Origin: Iphione sp. A-MEVVRFRX5
Lineage: Eukaryota
Assembly (NCBI GenBank): GCA_976226885.1
Contig: OZ320318.1
Span: 806,001 to 870,000 of the forward strand
Reading direction: 5' to 3'
DNA length: 64,000 nucleotides
The position numbers were made by a program, and so were the translations under genes. Shown piece after piece: positions 57,005 to 64,000 of the stretch; the first letter of the stretch is position 1; each line of letters starts with the position of its first letter. Below the pieces are notes generated by a model, which worked only from the letters and a program-made list of their open reading frames with translations, did no database searches and was not told where the DNA came from.

Positions 57005-57252
57005 CAAATAAACAAAAAAAGAAATTTTCAAAGTAGCATGCAATTCAAGGGCTTTCACTTGATAATACAATATTACAAAGTATCTCCTGCATTAAACCCT
57101 ACAGCTAAACTTGATGTATGGAACAGCAGTTACCACTTTCAAAAACATTAGTTTTGTTAGTGAGTAAAGTGTTAAAGTCTGGTGTTCTGGAATCTTGATG
57201 TCCGTGTGTGTTAGTAAATCATAAGTAGTGTAGGGGGAGTGGGGTTCAGGAG

Positions 57253-57376
57253 GAGTTTTCAAGTAGGTCAGTGGTTGGTCACGTGACAAGGTCTATGTCA
57301 AAGGTCACATGACTGAGTTTTCAAGTAGGTCAGTGGTTGGTCACGTGACAAGGTCTACGTCAGAGGTCACATGACT
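57253..57376. repeat. 62-bp tandem duplication in the putative terminal repeat
   Basis: GAGTTTTCAAGTAGGTCAGTGGTTGGTCACGTGACAAGGTCTA(T/C)GTCA(A/G)AGGTCACATGACT at 57253 and 57315, with 2 substitutions. Confidence 0.95.
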
Positions 57377-57514
57377 GAATAAGGACGATTGAACAAGGAC
57401 GTAAACAAAGAAGGAGGCAGTACTTCGCATGGGAACTGGTATGTATTGAAGTAGGTTAATGATAGGTTAATGGTTACTTACATGGGAGGTAGAATAAAGG
57501 AAGTAGAGATGATT

Positions 57515-57820
57515 TTAGAACAGGATATGAGTATGTTTTCGAAAGGAGGAGGAGGAGGTATGTTGAGGGATTTTTGAGTGTAGGCGTTGAAGCGTGTTTT
57601 TAGCGATATCGTGTGAGGGAGTTATAGTGGAAGGAATGCATGTGAAGCGTAAATGGGATAGGGTCATATCTAGAGGATGAAACAATAATATTGAGAAGAC
57701 AGAAAGAGATAAGGAGAAGTTAGAAGTAAGGTCTAATGGATGAAAGTATGTAGGTGAAGTGGTAAAAGGTTCGAGACGTTTTGTGGCGAACGTGAGCATG
57801 GAGGTGCAATAACCTTTCAT
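57515..57820 (-). CDS. Hypothetical 101-aa protein or terminal exon near the element end
   Basis: ATG at 57820, 47 bp from a palindromic TATA. FHPLD occurs twice in the frame. A strong acceptor (CTTTGTCTCCTCTGTCCAG, exon start 57833) suggests it could be a downstream exon. No homology recognised. Confidence 0.35.
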   Translation of the reverse strand: MKGYCTSMLTFATKRLEPFTTSPTYFHPLDLTSNFSLSLSVFSILLFHPLDMTLSHLRFTCIPSTITPSHDIAKNTLQRLHSKIPQHTSSSSFRKHTHILF

Positions 57821-57864
57821 GGAATCAACAAAGCTGGACAGAGGAGACAAAGGTAGGTGGGAAA

Positions 57865-57882
57865 CCTATATATATATATAGG
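57865..57882. promoter_or_regulatory. Palindromic TATA element CCTATATATATATATAGG
   Basis: Perfect 18-bp palindrome between divergent ATGs at 57820 (-) and 57975 (+). Confidence 0.45.
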
Positions 57883-57974
57883 AAAGGAGAAGGTCAGTGT
57901 TAGGTGAAGAGCGCTAATATTTGCTAGAGATTGTCTTGTCGAGAGCGGTTTGGTGGCTACCCAAGAGTGAAGGT

Positions 57975-59148
57975 ATGGAGGCAATTTCAGATAACGTGTC
58001 AGTTGAAATGATAGAAGGATATGTGAAGATGGAAAGGAGGCGAAATGGAGAGATGGTGAGGAAATGGAGAGTTGCTAAGGAGTTGTTTGAACAAGCAGGG
58101 AAGCGATGGACGAAGATTTTGCGAGGCGAGGAATGTAAAGTGGTCGTTCAACATAAACAATGGTGTATGCAGCTGAAGACTTACACTGGGAGAGAGTACG
58201 TTTCTTTTGCACGATTGGGAGTTTCGGGAGATAGGCTTACGTAAGTATAAATTGAAATGACATGGAATGTTGGTAGATTAATGTATGAGATTGTGTGTAT
58301 TAGTGAGAAGTATGGGTTTTTGTGGAAGTATACGTTTGAAAAAGGTAAATTTTATGTATGAAGGAAGAAGCACCAAGAAGTAATACGCAATGTTATTATT
58401 TTTGTATTGCAGCTACGATTGTTTTAATGTCACAGAAGATGAGTTTCACGAGGTATTAGAGCGGGTGAAGCAGTCTAGAAAAGATGAGAAGAACAAGAAA
58501 GAGACAGCTGAGGAAGCAGATAGAGGAAGTGATGATGAGGAGAAGGCAGAGGAGGAGGAAGAAGAGGCCTCAAAAGCGAAGAAGAAGAAGGTGGAGAAGC
58601 AGATACAGTACCAGAGGTCCTGGTACCAACATGTTTCAGCCGTCGACGGGTCAATTAGAACGAACGGTGTCTTGTTCATTCAGAATGCTCTTTGTGTTGC
58701 TGAAGGCGAAAACCATCAGTCTGAGAATGAAATGGTCGAGTACGGGAGGCAGGAAGGACTGACCATCACGGTAGGCGAAATCTGTGAGAAAACATATCTA
58801 TATATGCTACGTGATGGCTATAAGATGCTGATAAAGAACTGGTGTGAAGGTTGTCGTGTGAGAGCAGACGGGCAGGAAAGGCACATTCCAGGTTGTGTGG
58901 AATTGCCTGAAATGGTTGATTGGAGCGCAGTGCATGCTGCTCATATCAGAATTTCACCCGCACGATTGATGGAAGGTACAAAGTGTATGGTGAAGGTGTA
59001 TTTGGATTGTGATAACATTGAGGATGCTGATGATGTGCAGGTGGATTTAGATATGTGCAGGGATGTCATCAAGAGAGGAGAAGCCAAAGGAGACGAGTTT
59101 CTGTGTGTGATTCTTGAAAGAGACTATGATGTGTTGAAGAGGAAGTGA
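57975..59148 (+). CDS. 2-exon 333-aa protein: PC4-like region, acidic/basic linker, C-terminal CxxC-x6-Q-x2-H-x2-GC putative Zn-binding motif
   Basis: Exons 57975-58240 and 58413-59148 (1002 nt). The intron is GTAAGT...TTGCAG, phase 2, and joins in frame to give KTYTGREYVSFARLGVSGDRLT-YDCFNVTEDEFHEVLERVK, a strand-strand-helix pattern resembling PC4. Start context GGTATGG. Motif CEGCRVRADGQERHIPGC. Domain calls are by eye. Confidence 0.75.
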
Positions 59149-60121
59149 GATTTCGGGCTCCATGTGACATGGTGTGTGTTTACAAATAAGAAGAAATGTA
59201 TGCCTTATTAACACTCTATTTATTTAGTACTAGTTCACATACATCAGTTATATAGGAACTCAAAAGTAGTTATATATATCCTAATAGCAACACTTGTACG
59301 AGACATACATATCTACGTTGTTTGAAAATGCTATACAAACTATATGTAGTGATTTATATATGTTCCTGAGTTAGTATATATTGTATAATGATGTAGCATG
59401 AATTATAAGGACGGAAGTCAGAGATTATAAGTAAGATTAATATTATGGTGTACATAGGCATAGGCAGCATGCAATGAGTACAATGTAATATGTTAACATG
59501 ATGTCTACATGAATAAACTGTCCTTATAAACTCAATGGATTTTTGTGTGTGTGTGTGTGTGTTTTTCAACTACCATCAAGAACGAGAGTAAATATATCTT
59601 AACTATAATGAACAAAGTATACGTAATGTTTTTCTACGTAATAATATACCGATATGAAGATATTACTGAAACTGAACCAAACTAAGCTGAATACAGCGAA
59701 CTATTTGAGAGTATATATGGATATATTGTTAAGTATTTTGGATATGTAAGATGTTATAAGTAGACGATCATAAGTATAAATTTAATATGGATTTAGTTCA
59801 ATAATATGTGTTATATCAAAAAGCATCTGGCGACAGTGAAGAAAACATCAAATATCAGATAACCATCCTATCATGAACTCAAAACAGATCTATCCTAAAA
59901 GAAAACATGGTAAGGCACAAGTCGCGCAGTTGTTGTAATAAAAGACACGTCATAATATAGGAGATATATGCAAGTAAAATGTTCGATGGAATTCTCAAGC
60001 TGCTTTGGCTGTGAACAGCCATAAGTTGCCAGCATCATGTGTATGTGTTACGTCGTAATAAAAGATACATTATGATATAGAAGATATATGCAAGTAAAAA
60101 TCCGCAATGTTCAAGTTGGTA

Positions 60122-60136
60122 TCCGCTAGATGGAGC
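60122..60136 (+). promoter_or_regulatory. CTCF-like motif inside the element
   Basis: TCCGCTAGATGGAGC lies between convergent 3' ends. Confidence 0.4.
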
Positions 60137-60222
60137 AAGAGTCGGTGTAATGTGGTTGGAACCAAACAAGAGGGTGACGAAAACCAATACATAGTTTTCA
60201 AGTCCTGTTAGGTTGGGATAGG

Positions 60223-60717
60223 TTATTCCGCGGCATCAGAGTCACTGTCATATGCAAGAGTAGCTACCGGTTCTCGTTTCCAAAACTGCGGGGGAGGAGA
60301 AGGACTGGTGCTGCTCGATGGATCAGGGTTAGGATCGGTGCTGGTCGATGGGCCGGGAATAGGATCGGTGCCGGTTGATAGGTTGGGAGTAGAATCTTGT
60401 TCACTTGGTTGAGACACAGAACATCCTTGCACGGGCGACTGCGGAGGTGAAGCATTCTCTTCAGGCAACTGTAAGAGAAGTAAGAAGGAAAAAAAAGAAT
60501 AGCTGAATGAGACATGATGTTCATAGCACAGAGATATATATCATGGTTAAATATGGTAGATGAAGTAGGTTAAATGATTTATAGGTTAGTTTAAAAAGAG
60601 TGGGGGTGCCTTAAACATGTAGCGGGGAGATTTGGATGAACAGATACATATATATGTATGCATGGCACGCGTGCATGCGTGCGCACACACGCATGCATGC
60701 GTGTGTGCGTGTGTGCA

Positions 60718-60748
<31 letters not shown>

Positions 60749-63129
60749 AAAAATTAGAGACACATACATCTGTTATCTTGGGTGTTGACTGGACACGGTT
60801 TAGGACTCTAATCGATCGGCGCACAGGCTGAGTTGCTGTTGCAGAGTCGTTTTTTGAGGTTCGTCGACGACAGGTTTTGCCGGCAGGTTCTCGTCCTCTT
60901 GGTGAGGATGAAGTGGCTGTAGATGTGGTTGAAGTCTTCGGTTTCACAATCATGCTCTCTTGTGTAGGCGTGTGGTCAAAAGTTGAGGACGTTGTGGTAG
61001 TGGTGGTAGTTGTGGTGGAGTTGGTCGAAGGACGTATGGGCCGTCTAGTTGATGAATCAGTAGTGACAGCGGCAGAAGTAACAGTGGAGAAAGCAGAAGA
61101 ACCAGTAGAAACAAGAGGTTGAGATGAAGAATGAGAGGGATGGCATTGCGGAGGATAGAGCATGATGCCTTGAGAACGAGGAGGTGGCAGGGGCGGCCGT
61201 GGTCGGGGTGATGAGGTAAAGGACGAGCAAGAAGTGTACAAGTTTGGAGAGTTTGAAGATGAAGAAGGGGAGAGGATAGGGGCATGGACAATGGGAGTTT
61301 CAGTTGATGTGGTGGAGATGGGCGGTGTAGTGACGGGAACAGAGTGAGATAGAGATGAAGCAGTTGTCAGTGCTGGGAGAGAAGAAGACAGGGAAGCAGG
61401 TGGGTCAGTATGTTCGTTCTCAGGGCTACGGCTATGAGAATGGTTGGAGGGAGTCAAAGTGGTGTGAGGTATGGAGCGTGTAGATGATTCGAAAGAAGAG
61501 ATGTAATCTGCGAGGGATGTGCCGCGAGGAAGGGAAGCAGTGGAGGGTCTATAGTCAAAAGGAGATGTAGTGCCATGTTTATGTCCAAAGGATGACTGTA
61601 AGAAAGGGTTAGTGTTTGGAGGAAGATCAATGCTTGCTGGTGGATGCAAGAAAGGGGGATGGCGAATAGAGGTAGATGGGGTAGAGGCGCATGTAGGAGA
61701 AGATGAGATAGGGGGCATGGGTATGAGAGGAAATCTAGATATGTAGTCACCAGAAGTGATTAAGGGAACATCGAGTGAAGATGAAGTAGGTGTGGAAAGA
61801 TCATCAAGGGGGATGGACTCAAAAAGTGCGGGTGAGAGTGGTTGAGGTGGACGAGAGGGGCGAGGTGGAGGGTGGGGGCGTGTCGAGGGTGAAGTAGGGG
61901 AGTATGTAGACTCCGAGGAGTGGTTGTGACTGTCATGTTTGTAAGCAGCTTTCTCATCAGTGCTATAACATAGAACAGTAGGCGCAGAAAAATGAGCAAG
62001 GGGGATTACCAAATGTTTCTTTAAAACTTATATATGAGGTAATGAATGAGAGAACAATATCATATGTACACACAGGAGTAACAGGGACTTAGCAGAGGGT
62101 ATAGTCACGGAGAGAGCATTAATGCGTAGAAAGGGGAGACACATGGATGTTGAGCTTACAGTTTAGTGAGCAAAATATGGCTATCAATTTAGACCTTTTC
62201 GACTTTGTGAAAATATTCACAGTTCAAATAATCAGGATATTAATAATAACAATAATGATATATGAGGGAATAAATAATAGAAGAAATATATTTGACAGGA
62301 TAATGTATAAGTCAGATGATGATGTAAAAGAGAGATTTATAGGTTGTACTTACCTGCGAGTAGGCGGTGGAGGGGTTGGAGGCGATGGAGATCTAGTGGT
62401 TGGAGATTGTTGTGATGCAGAGGATGCCGGTGATGGTGGTACGAAGTATGGATGTCTGCGCATCAGTGCAGAGTACCACTTGAAACGCACACATGGCACC
62501 ATAAGTGCCGCAATGGTGAGGAAAAGCAAAACTGTCCCAACACAGGAAAGTATAATGACATCCGAGTTGGTGTATGTGCGAATGTATTCTGTCAGAGTTG
62601 GAGACGGATAAGTTGGCACTGATGGGCCGTTGTCATCAGGTACTGGATGGATTAAGACAGGTTCTACTTTTGACTGTGTCATGCTTTCAATCGGGTCCTC
62701 GGCGGGGGTTGCTGCAATCTCGGCTGTTGCAACAGAATATGCAGATGGCGGGAGTTCGCCTTCAATGTTATCACTGCTGGCAATGGAATGTGGATTGATC
62801 GGTGGTGATATTAGTTTAATTGTTGATGTTGGGATATATAGCAGACGAAAAACAATGTTCATGTCAATGTCCACCGCTTCAACATACCGTAGATTAGGGA
62901 AGACTTCGCGCAGTCGATCACGTAAACGCACCTCTGGATCCACGATATGTGGTGCATTCAAGTAAAGTCGGTAAAAGCGTGGGTACACATGGTGTAGTGA
63001 GTAAAAAAAGGATGTCGCCACACTGTTGCAATGAACGGAAGTCTGTAGACAAACACATCGTCTGCATAATATGTCCTCACTGAAGACAAAGTGGATGAGA
63101 AGTAATCCCAAAAAACTACGTAAAAGCAT
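60223..63129 (-). CDS. 3-exon 738-aa type I membrane protein: signal peptide, LRRNT-like Cys cap with degenerate LRRs, S/T/P stalk, TM, ~520-aa disordered tail
   Basis: Exons 63129-62354, 61962-60768 and 60468-60223 (2217 nt, 739 codons). Intron 1 is GTAAGT...TTATAG (phase 2) and intron 2 is GTATGT...TCTCTTACAG (phase 0); both join in frame. Start context GCCATCATG. Hydrophobic N-terminus at aa 1-17, CRRCVCLQTSVHC, TM at aa ~191-214 followed by RFK. Confidence 0.8.
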
Positions 63130-63690
63130 GATGGCAACGCCGTCATCAGATACCGATGCAGAGGCTGACTACGGGGCTGGTTTTCAAATCCCGCAGTGTA
63201 CCGGGTAATGGGTGCATGCACTATAAAATGAACTCGACCATTGTCGCAAAGTTTAACAAGATTAATTAAAATGTAATAAAAATGTGGTTTTTAGTAGTCG
63301 GAAAGATATGAAGAGCCAGTCCTAGAACGTTCGATGAAGAATTACCAATTAATGCAAAAAGCATGTCAACATTATCGGAAAATGGACTGGTCCTTGTAGG
63401 AGTATCTAATGGGGAGGGGGCACTTCGCGGTCGCGGGGTGATAAAGTAGCCGTAAACATTTCAGCGGACACCTCTGAAAGCACAGAAGGCAAGATAAGAC
63501 GAGAAAAGAGGACGAAAGGCTCGTAAATTTTATTAGCAGAGGGGGTGTGCTGGTGGACAGTGCAAATCTCATAGCCGTTTTCAGACACAGGATAGGCGCC
63601 AAGCAGGAGACCAGGAGGACAAAACGGTGTAACAGGAATATACACAGAGAGAAATCAGCGGGGTATTTGCAGACAGGAAATAGCGCCGAA

Positions 63691-64000
63691 ATGTATCAGA
63701 AGTTTCTCATTCTGCTTGTTTTAGTGTTTATTGTGACACTAATTAAGTCGGAATGTCCTTTGAGGTGTGGTGGATGCAATCCACCCTTGATGAGATGTAG
63801 AGGAGAACTTGATCCGTTCCTGGTTAACTTTCGGAGAGATGAAAGGATGAAAGGACTCGATTGGGGAGGATGTATGATCAGTGAGATCAGACCTGAAGTG
63901 TTTGAAATATTTGAGAATGTGGAATTTCTGGACATTAGACATCAAGGAATTGAATTTAAGTGCTGGTCACTGCGGAAAGTACCAGCACATGTAAAAGTGT
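63691..64000 (+). CDS. 5' part of a secreted or membrane mini-LRR protein (no stop in window; absent from the ORF track)
   Basis: MYQKFLILLVLVFIVTLIKS-ECPLRCGGCNPPLMRCRGELDPFLVNFRRDERMKGLDWGGCMISEIRPEVFEIFENVEFLDIRHQGIEFKCWSLRKVPAHVKV. It has a signal peptide, a 4-Cys LRRNT-like cap, and two LxxLxLxxNxI-type motifs 24 aa apart (M53, V77). Confidence 0.8.
   Translation, partial: MYQKFLILLVLVFIVTLIKSECPLRCGGCNPPLMRCRGELDPFLVNFRRDERMKGLDWGGCMISEIRPEVFEIFENVEFLDIRHQGIEFKCWSLRKVPAHVKV

Follow-up and report, generated by a model that had tools for sequence, protein, structure and literature searches.

The window, by which we mean the whole 64 000-nucleotide stretch that was analysed, contig positions 806001-870000, ends within a Maverick/Polinton element and includes its left 6.8 kb. 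Two genes of this element diverge from a common spacer. Gene A is contained in the window and gene B runs out of it. The features are listed below with position in the window and strand (a dot where strand does not apply).

57224-64000 (.), left 6.8 kb of the 21-kb Maverick/Polinton, whose protease, capsid-like, integrase, ATPase and polymerase genes are outside the window
57224-57274 (+), left terminal inverted repeat, starting AGTAGT; target site duplication (TSD) ATCATA just before it at 57218-57223
60223-60468 (-), gene A predicted exon 3, 81 aa and stop; unconserved between subfamilies
60469-60767 (-), gene A predicted intron 2, phase 0, with a CA microsatellite inside
60768-61962 (-), gene A predicted exon 2, disordered tail
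60804-60821 (-), RRSIRV; family motif RRSxR[LIV], HMGN/Dsup-like
61032-61046 (-), RRPIR; family motif RR[PA][LI]R, 11/25 tails, 7/15 held-out tails
61725-61748 (-), DYISRFPL, conserved only in the subclade of the window's protein
61806-61823 (-), FESIPL, conserved as F-x-[ST]-[IV]-[PS]-L, LIR-like
61963-62353 (-), gene A predicted intron 1, phase 2; if retained, the donor gives an in-frame stop
62354-63129 (-), gene A predicted exon 1: signal peptide, folded mini-ectodomain, stalk, transmembrane segment (TM) and start of the tail
62491-62559 (-), single TM with a conserved Pro-Cys at its end, then basic residues
62560-62820 (-), variable Ser/Thr/Pro stalk
62821-63078 (-), folded ectodomain, likely a degenerate mini-LRR: CxxCxC..C LRRNT-like cap and short parallel strands
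63079-63129 (-), predicted signal peptide, residues 1-17, from hydrophobicity by eye
63130-63690 (.), spacer of 561 bp, flanked by the start codons of the divergent genes A and B; homologues have about 450-700 bp here; likely a shared promoter
63691-64000 (+), 5' part of gene B, which runs beyond the window: signal peptide, mini-LRR, stalk and TM; this copy is frameshifted outside the window

The bounds of the element were set by comparison with three other copies. Its terminal inverted repeats (51 bp, 88 % identity) have AGTAGT ends, and the 6-bp TSD, ATCATA, is found on both sides. The integrase (rve, E 5e-9) and the ATPase (Pox_A32, E 3.8e-5) score over their cut-offs, and the cysteine protease matches the ASFV S273R protease (E 1.8e-8). 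The polymerase frame of 1671 aa matches DNA_pol_B_2 (E 1.5e-5) with 24.5 bits, slightly below the cut-off of 25.8 on a fragment, and was accepted as the polymerase. The capsid-like frames are conserved and in the expected places, and have no Pfam or PDB sequence match; by position, they are candidates for the double jelly-roll major and minor capsid genes. The element that hosts gene A is a Maverick/Polinton, and an earlier sequence-only reading of this DNA was right to regard the gene as element-encoded.

Several further features of the element were recorded. Its capsid-like gene is split over two frames (L012:1867-3317, - strand). Outside the window, the polymerase has a C-terminal NADAR domain (Pfam E 1e-17; L012:7193-7650, - strand) and N-terminal C2H2 zinc fingers. 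A second two-exon gene near the left end (57918-58240 and 58413-59148, + strand) joins in frame across a phase-2 GT..AG intron and is conserved in many elements. Its first exon looks PC4-like; Pfam and Atlas gave no support for this. A second Maverick, about 75 % identical and in the same orientation, lies on the same contig at about 886200-908000 (L013-L015, L041), separated by about 2 kb from the first one's right end, and contains its own gene A homologue and a broken gene B.

Exon 1 of gene A is present in eight copies at 95-100 % identity in the 1.18-Gb host genome. A search with the A ectodomain gave 534 candidates, and the 150 of them that were scored all have E <1e-23 and, in 149 cases, no stop codon; the ATPase search gave 1333 first-look candidates, of which 150 were scored. 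These candidate totals are not copy numbers, and we count at least 150 A homologues in the genome. The Maverick expansion is large, with hundreds of copies. For 19/20 distant A homologues, the 8 kb upstream contain two or more core genes. Forty A loci were fetched, and 25-28 were used after near-duplicates and copies broken in exon 1 had been removed.

The sequence-only reading had joined the open reading frames 62350-63129, 60591-62012 and 60223-60468 through canonical introns, and such a frame is indeed present. In a junction test on the sequence, the exons 63129-62354, 61962-60768 and 60468-60223 form one frame of 738 aa, interrupted by an intron of 391 bp (GTAAGT..TTATAG, phase 2) and one of 299 bp (GTATGT..TTACAG, phase 0). 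Eleven nearby junction combinations give an open frame, and the 738-aa one is the only one with GT..AG at both introns. All three exons are open in five of the seven close copies, and the other two have stops and frameshifts. In the five intact copies, 9/9 indels are intronic, and there are 46 synonymous versus 29 non-synonymous substitutions, counted against the window and not independent of one another. For 26 diverged homologues, a generic splice score places the best intron 1 donor in phase 2 in all 26 and the best acceptor in frame in 21 (binomial 9e-7 at an expectation of 1/3, the loci being related). In this scoring, the end of the TM was mis-called in at least two loci, so that non-homologous donors were scored there, and in 16/26 the stop that set the limit of the search comes from the donor itself. 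In one clade, the intron 2 donor directly follows RRSxR, and the best acceptor then restores Leu/Ile after this motif in 7/8 loci, often giving RRSARL. The same restoration was found in 11/11 loci (about six distinct subfamilies) of a held-out set, whose elements were picked by their ATPase and not by gene A. Because the indels are intronic, the intron 1 acceptor is in frame and the split RRSxR motif is restored, gene A is predicted to be spliced into a single protein of 738 aa. Exon 3 is low-complexity, and the acidic end that it encodes here (YDSDSDAAE), included in the earlier list of motifs, is not shared: the predicted exon 3 of homologues is short (2-50 aa) and dissimilar.

The gene A protein has one internal hydrophobic segment, residues 191-213, and none past residue 220, and type I topology is predicted. 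Its ectodomain had been described as tiny; corrected, it is about 173 aa, with a folded part of 86 aa followed by a stalk of 87 aa. The four Cys of the N-terminal cap are invariant in 28/28 sequences. From residue 34 to the TM there is no Cys, nor is any conserved in the alignment, and a C-terminal Cys cap (LRRCT) is thus lacking. The ectodomain model has a pLDDT of 81 and weak fold matches (Foldseek E 0.3 at best), among which LRR proteins recur. It aligns end to end with chain 8wfs_c of GPIb-IX (VIA Z 4.8, rmsd 3.8, 67 residues aligned, 19 % identity), a match that is not significant and stands below the top one, an unrelated methyltransferase (Z 5.6). There was no LRR profile match and every structural Z was <6. 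Judged from the model and the Cys pattern, the domain is likely a degenerate mini-LRR. Pfam contains no family matching exon 1 or exon 2, and a viral fold search returned nothing at E 0.001. A PDB profile match to GABA receptors (E 0.06) was dismissed as chance.

Gene B, which does not figure in the sequence-only reading, parallels A in plan, with a signal peptide, small Cys-capped domain, stalk, TM and basic tail. By profile and by model, it is an LRR protein. Its profile matches TLR3/7/8/4 (best whole-sequence E 1.5e-10, for TLR3, summed over repeats), and its model (pLDDT 88) retrieved hardly anything but LRR proteins with Foldseek, at E 0.04 at best. A direct profile comparison of A with B gave no match (probability 1.8 %). 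Gene B lies upstream of A and divergent from it in 20/20 loci selected by A. Among 20 elements selected by their ATPase, 16 have A and B together, 15 of them in the fetched stretch and one with the pair displaced by an insertion, and the remaining four are rearranged, deleted or repeat-filled. One of these, L103, was considered as a subfamily without A/B and rejected, as it is a single rearranged copy with two siblings that carry both genes. In L097 and L103, a long tandem-repeat tract replaces A/B in one, and a second polymerase arm, closed by a terminal inverted repeat, is found in the other.

Mean pairwise identity over 16 elements is 0.54 for the A ectodomain, 0.62 for the B ectodomain and 0.67-0.73 for the capsid-like protein, integrase and ATPase. 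In these elements, A distances track those of B and of all three core genes (Mantel p 0.001-0.003 for the core genes), and B distances track the ATPase poorly (p 0.10). We infer that A and B are co-expressed from the common spacer and that their products associate. In the window's element, gene A is intact and gene B is split over two frames (L012:3-685, + strand); four sibling copies that were checked have a continuous B frame of 316 aa. The tails of B homologues (L027-L069) have an Arg-rich stretch and then W-x-D-x-x-x-[YF] followed by a phase-0 donor, and because of this donor gene B is likely spliced too.

For the A ectodomain, dN/dS is 0.06-0.10 in 3/11 pairs; the other eight pairs are saturated at synonymous sites and have pN of 0.09-0.26. 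The tail is under moderate purifying selection, with dN/dS of 0.24-0.61 in 8/10 pairs and 0.73 and 1.09 in the other two.

The tail is 525 aa long and 52 % Ser/Thr/Pro, and has no Pfam family, exon 3 being low-complexity; the earlier description of a Ser/Thr/Pro-rich tail without a catalytic or TIR domain stands. In homologues the tail frames are about 300-1100 aa, with breaks in several sampled copies. Motifs were counted in 25 tails against 200 shuffles, using patterns picked by eye from those loci, and were then checked in 15 held-out tails. All of the motifs listed in the sequence-only reading occur in the protein, and aligning homologues, as it had proposed, retained few of them. Only its RRSIR patch is conserved across the family: RRSxR is present in 16/25 tails (shuffles 0.7) and in 10/15 held-out tails (0.36), with Trp or Cys at one Arg position in three homologues. 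Its duplicated DYISxF survives in part, since the first copy (DYISRF) is kept within the subclade as Y-x-[ST]-R-[FY]-P-L (9/25, shuffles 0.0; 0/15 held-out), and the second is not conserved. Its NPF occurs at chance level (3/25, shuffles 2.2; 2/15 held-out), and class I SH3 motifs fare no better (17/25, shuffles 15.4). Class II SH3 motifs are in 23/25 (shuffles 15.7, maximum 22). The 660 PxxP found versus 372 in shuffles are expected from proline runs. Patterns for ITIM, YxxPhi and dileucine signals showed no excess over chance in the 25 tails, and PPxY and PTAP-type motifs are rare.

A conserved motif that the sequence-only reading did not mention is FESIPL. Its strict form, F[EDN][ST][IV][PS]L, is in 20/25 tails (shuffles 0.0), but the strict FExIPL pattern drops to 4/15 in the held-out tails. 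The relaxed F-x-[ST]-[IV]-[PS]-L, a pattern set after those sequences had been viewed, is in 10/15 and absent from 5/15. The [WFY]xx[LIV] core is present as FESI at residue 306, in a disordered region and at a position kept in homologues. Just ahead of the Phe, the window's protein has Ala-Leu, which is non-acidic and misses xLIR, where most homologues are Ser/Thr/Glu-rich; xLIR counts in A tails are not above shuffles. RR[PA][LI]R has a shuffle expectation of 0.1 for its 11/25 tails. A second Arg motif, [YH]-x-L-R, precedes RRSxR in 9/15 held-out tails (shuffles 1.8). The fifth-position Arg of RRSxR is kept in the window's protein (RRSIRV), and the trailing SA of HMGN is absent. FESIPL as an LIR and RRSxR[LIV] as an acidic-patch motif are best treated as leads, that is, as candidate resemblances in sequence. 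A PP1 RVxF motif was considered for the family (12/25; shuffles 4.6, maximum 12) and rejected as a subclade feature, being in 4/15 held-out tails (3.1) and absent from the window's protein; in one subclade, RVxF is followed by D-T-V. Two patterns set after viewing L094-L112, and absent from the window's protein, are DS[IV]VT[VM] in 12/15 and N-x-TDF in 7/15 of these tails (shuffles <0.1 for each). The suggestion of a motif-driven scaffold is plausible because the tail stays open, is under moderate purifying selection and keeps short motifs, but most of the motifs on which it was built are unconserved.

Homologues outside the host genome were sought in collections that are mostly microbial. A word search found none for A (229-2000 aa) or B (162-2000 aa), and the A profile found none among 1.84 billion protein representatives, a set poor in animal genes; two profile hits there were rejected as unrelated repeat proteins scoring by summed repeats. 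Viral contigs gave no homologue, and metagenomes gave two weak short matches (33 % over 50 aa; 14 aa). A Maverick/Polinton membrane-protein pair of this kind was not found in open-access text from studies of adintovirus accessory genes (PMC8502044), coral polintoviruses (PMC11131425), animal viruses (PMC11071296) or nematode Mavericks (bioRxiv 2022.07.12.499685), nor in a wider search of open-access literature, though supplements may annotate such genes. The string 'RRSxRL' had no match in open-access literature. The A/B module appears to be undescribed in the databases searched.

Gene A is found lineage-wide in this Maverick/Polinton and is under purifying selection, and its pairing with B, its intron positions and two tail motifs are conserved. 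Our preferred reading, to which we give a probability of about 45 %, is that gene A encodes a membrane-anchored adaptor that works with B and re-routes host membranes or receptors in the manner of adenovirus E3 RID. A and B would be expressed together from the common spacer and enter the secretory pathway, where their LRR-type heads, small, disulfide-capped and carried on mucin-like stalks, would pair or bind a host surface or luminal protein. The long disordered tail would serve as a tether. A trafficking factor, of the Atg8/GABARAP type or another, would be the partner of the F-x-[ST]-[IV]-[PS]-L motif, and the terminal RRSxR[LIV] patch would bind an acidic partner or serve as a switch operated by a basophilic kinase. 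Overall, host membranes or receptors would be re-routed in the active phase of the element, as with adenovirus E3 RID-alpha/beta. This reading is supported by the element context, the A-B pairing, purifying selection, the conserved motifs, the TLR3 match of B, the FIP200 LIR and the RID precedent. It is weakened by the fall of strict FExIPL in held-out tails, the post hoc nature of the relaxed pattern and the Ala-Leu before the Phe, and also by the two high tail dN/dS values, the weak fold match of A and the frameshift of B in the window's element. Strong ectodomain conservation also counts against it, as it is more typical of structural genes than of immune-evasion genes.

Other readings explain parts of the same evidence. 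That the exons are never joined, so that exon 1 ends at the donor stop as a short-tailed protein of 259 aa, with the frames further downstream either independent or untranslated, gains something from the donor stop in 16/26 homologues, through which a retained intron would yield a clean short isoform. It is very unlikely given the in-frame acceptors (21/26), the confinement of all nine indels of the five intact copies to introns, the restoration of the motif split by intron 2 and the tail dN/dS, mostly <0.61. The resemblance of B to TLR LRRs, together with a tail that lacks a TIR or other Pfam domain and varies from about 300 to 1100 aa, would suit TIR-less decoys of host LRR immune receptors, in which the ectodomains act, the tail being for the most part a neutral linker that has kinase sites. 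We regard this as quite improbable, because the tails remain open reading frames for hundreds of codons, their motifs are far above shuffles and the ectodomains show no rapid diversification.

It is also unlikely that A and B serve an enveloped Maverick particle as its envelope or attachment proteins, the basic end of the tail then holding on to the capsid or core DNA in budding. The two genes adjoin the protease and capsid-like genes and are conserved nearly like core genes, and nematode Mavericks have acquired a fusogen with signal peptide and TM (bioRxiv 2022.07.12.499685). However, the folded ectodomains are <90 aa, unlike a gB-like fusogen, A and B are predicted to be spliced whereas core genes are intronless, and the tails have few PPxY or PTAP-type motifs. 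Finally, A could be an inner nuclear membrane tether, whose RRSxR[LIV] grips the nucleosome acidic patch and whose LIR-like motif brings Atg8 membranes, aiding nuclear docking or exit of the genome or particle. HMGN (RRSARLSA) and Dsup (RRSSRL) bind this patch (PMC12487698), and the anchor Arg is kept in the window's protein. The restoration of Leu/Ile by the intron 2 acceptor (7/8 and 11/11) and the preceding [YH]-x-L-R motif fit as well. Against this, a tail of 525-1000 aa must traverse the nuclear pore, three homologues have Trp or Cys at an Arg position and the 11 held-out cases come down to about six subfamilies. RRSxR is, moreover, a common kinase site and basic patch, and we consider the tether rather unlikely. 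Its fuller form, a heterodimeric mini-LRR complex in the nuclear envelope that would combine an HMGN-like Arg anchor on nucleosomes with a FIP200-like LIR and so mimic a nucleophagy receptor for Maverick docking or exit, is improbable.

How animal Mavericks interact with cells, leave them and protect themselves is an open question, and few accessory genes are known. A lineage-wide and strongly conserved LRR-type pair, predicted to be spliced, provides two proteins and two motifs to test. The element resembles the adintoviruses/eupolintoviruses of PMC8502044 in its AGTAGT terminal repeats, 6-bp TSD, length of about 21 kb, pPolB, retroviral-like integrase, A32 ATPase and cysteine protease, and differs in having these two LRR-type single-pass proteins. 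That paper names PLA2X, GasderminX and a cupiennin-like gene as membrane-active accessory genes, and the words 'transmembrane', 'leucine-rich' and 'splic' are absent from its main text. In nematodes, too, there are Mavericks with a TM protein and with genes that have introns (bioRxiv 2022.07.12.499685): close to the left terminal repeat, as here, the MFUS-1 element has intron-containing genes and a protein with signal peptide and TM. However, MFUS-1 has a large gB-like ectodomain and a short tail, whereas A, with a folded ectodomain of <90 aa, does not qualify as a class III fusogen, and the cargo of nematode elements varies, in contrast to A and B, which are fixed in this lineage and follow the core genes.

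Platelet GPIb-beta/GPIX shares with A a small Cys-capped ectodomain (a putative mini-LRR in A), a single TM and occurrence as a pair. A differs by its stalk, its very long tail and the lack of a C-terminal Cys cap, and the structural match is not significant. In a Toll-like receptor the tail would include a cytoplasmic TIR domain, which A lacks. Resemblance in sequence alone links the tail to two further systems, in both of which the motif is not, as in A, in the tail of a membrane protein. The LIR of FIP200 is FETI followed by Pro, which favours GABARAP (PMC7297954), and A has F-E-[ST]-I then Pro. In the acidic-patch motif of HMGN and Dsup, the fifth residue is the arginine anchor (PMC12487698), and A has RRSxR[LIV] with this Arg. 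The parallel with adenovirus E3 RID-alpha/RID-beta is drawn as an analogy: these, too, are two small membrane proteins, encoded by a related DNA-virus lineage, and short motifs in their tails let them act on host traffic (PMC8156722). Unlike the long tail of A, those of RID are short, and the Tyr and dileucine signals that they use occur no more often than by chance in A. On our preferred reading, the A/B pair would be a Maverick counterpart of the adenovirus E3 region.
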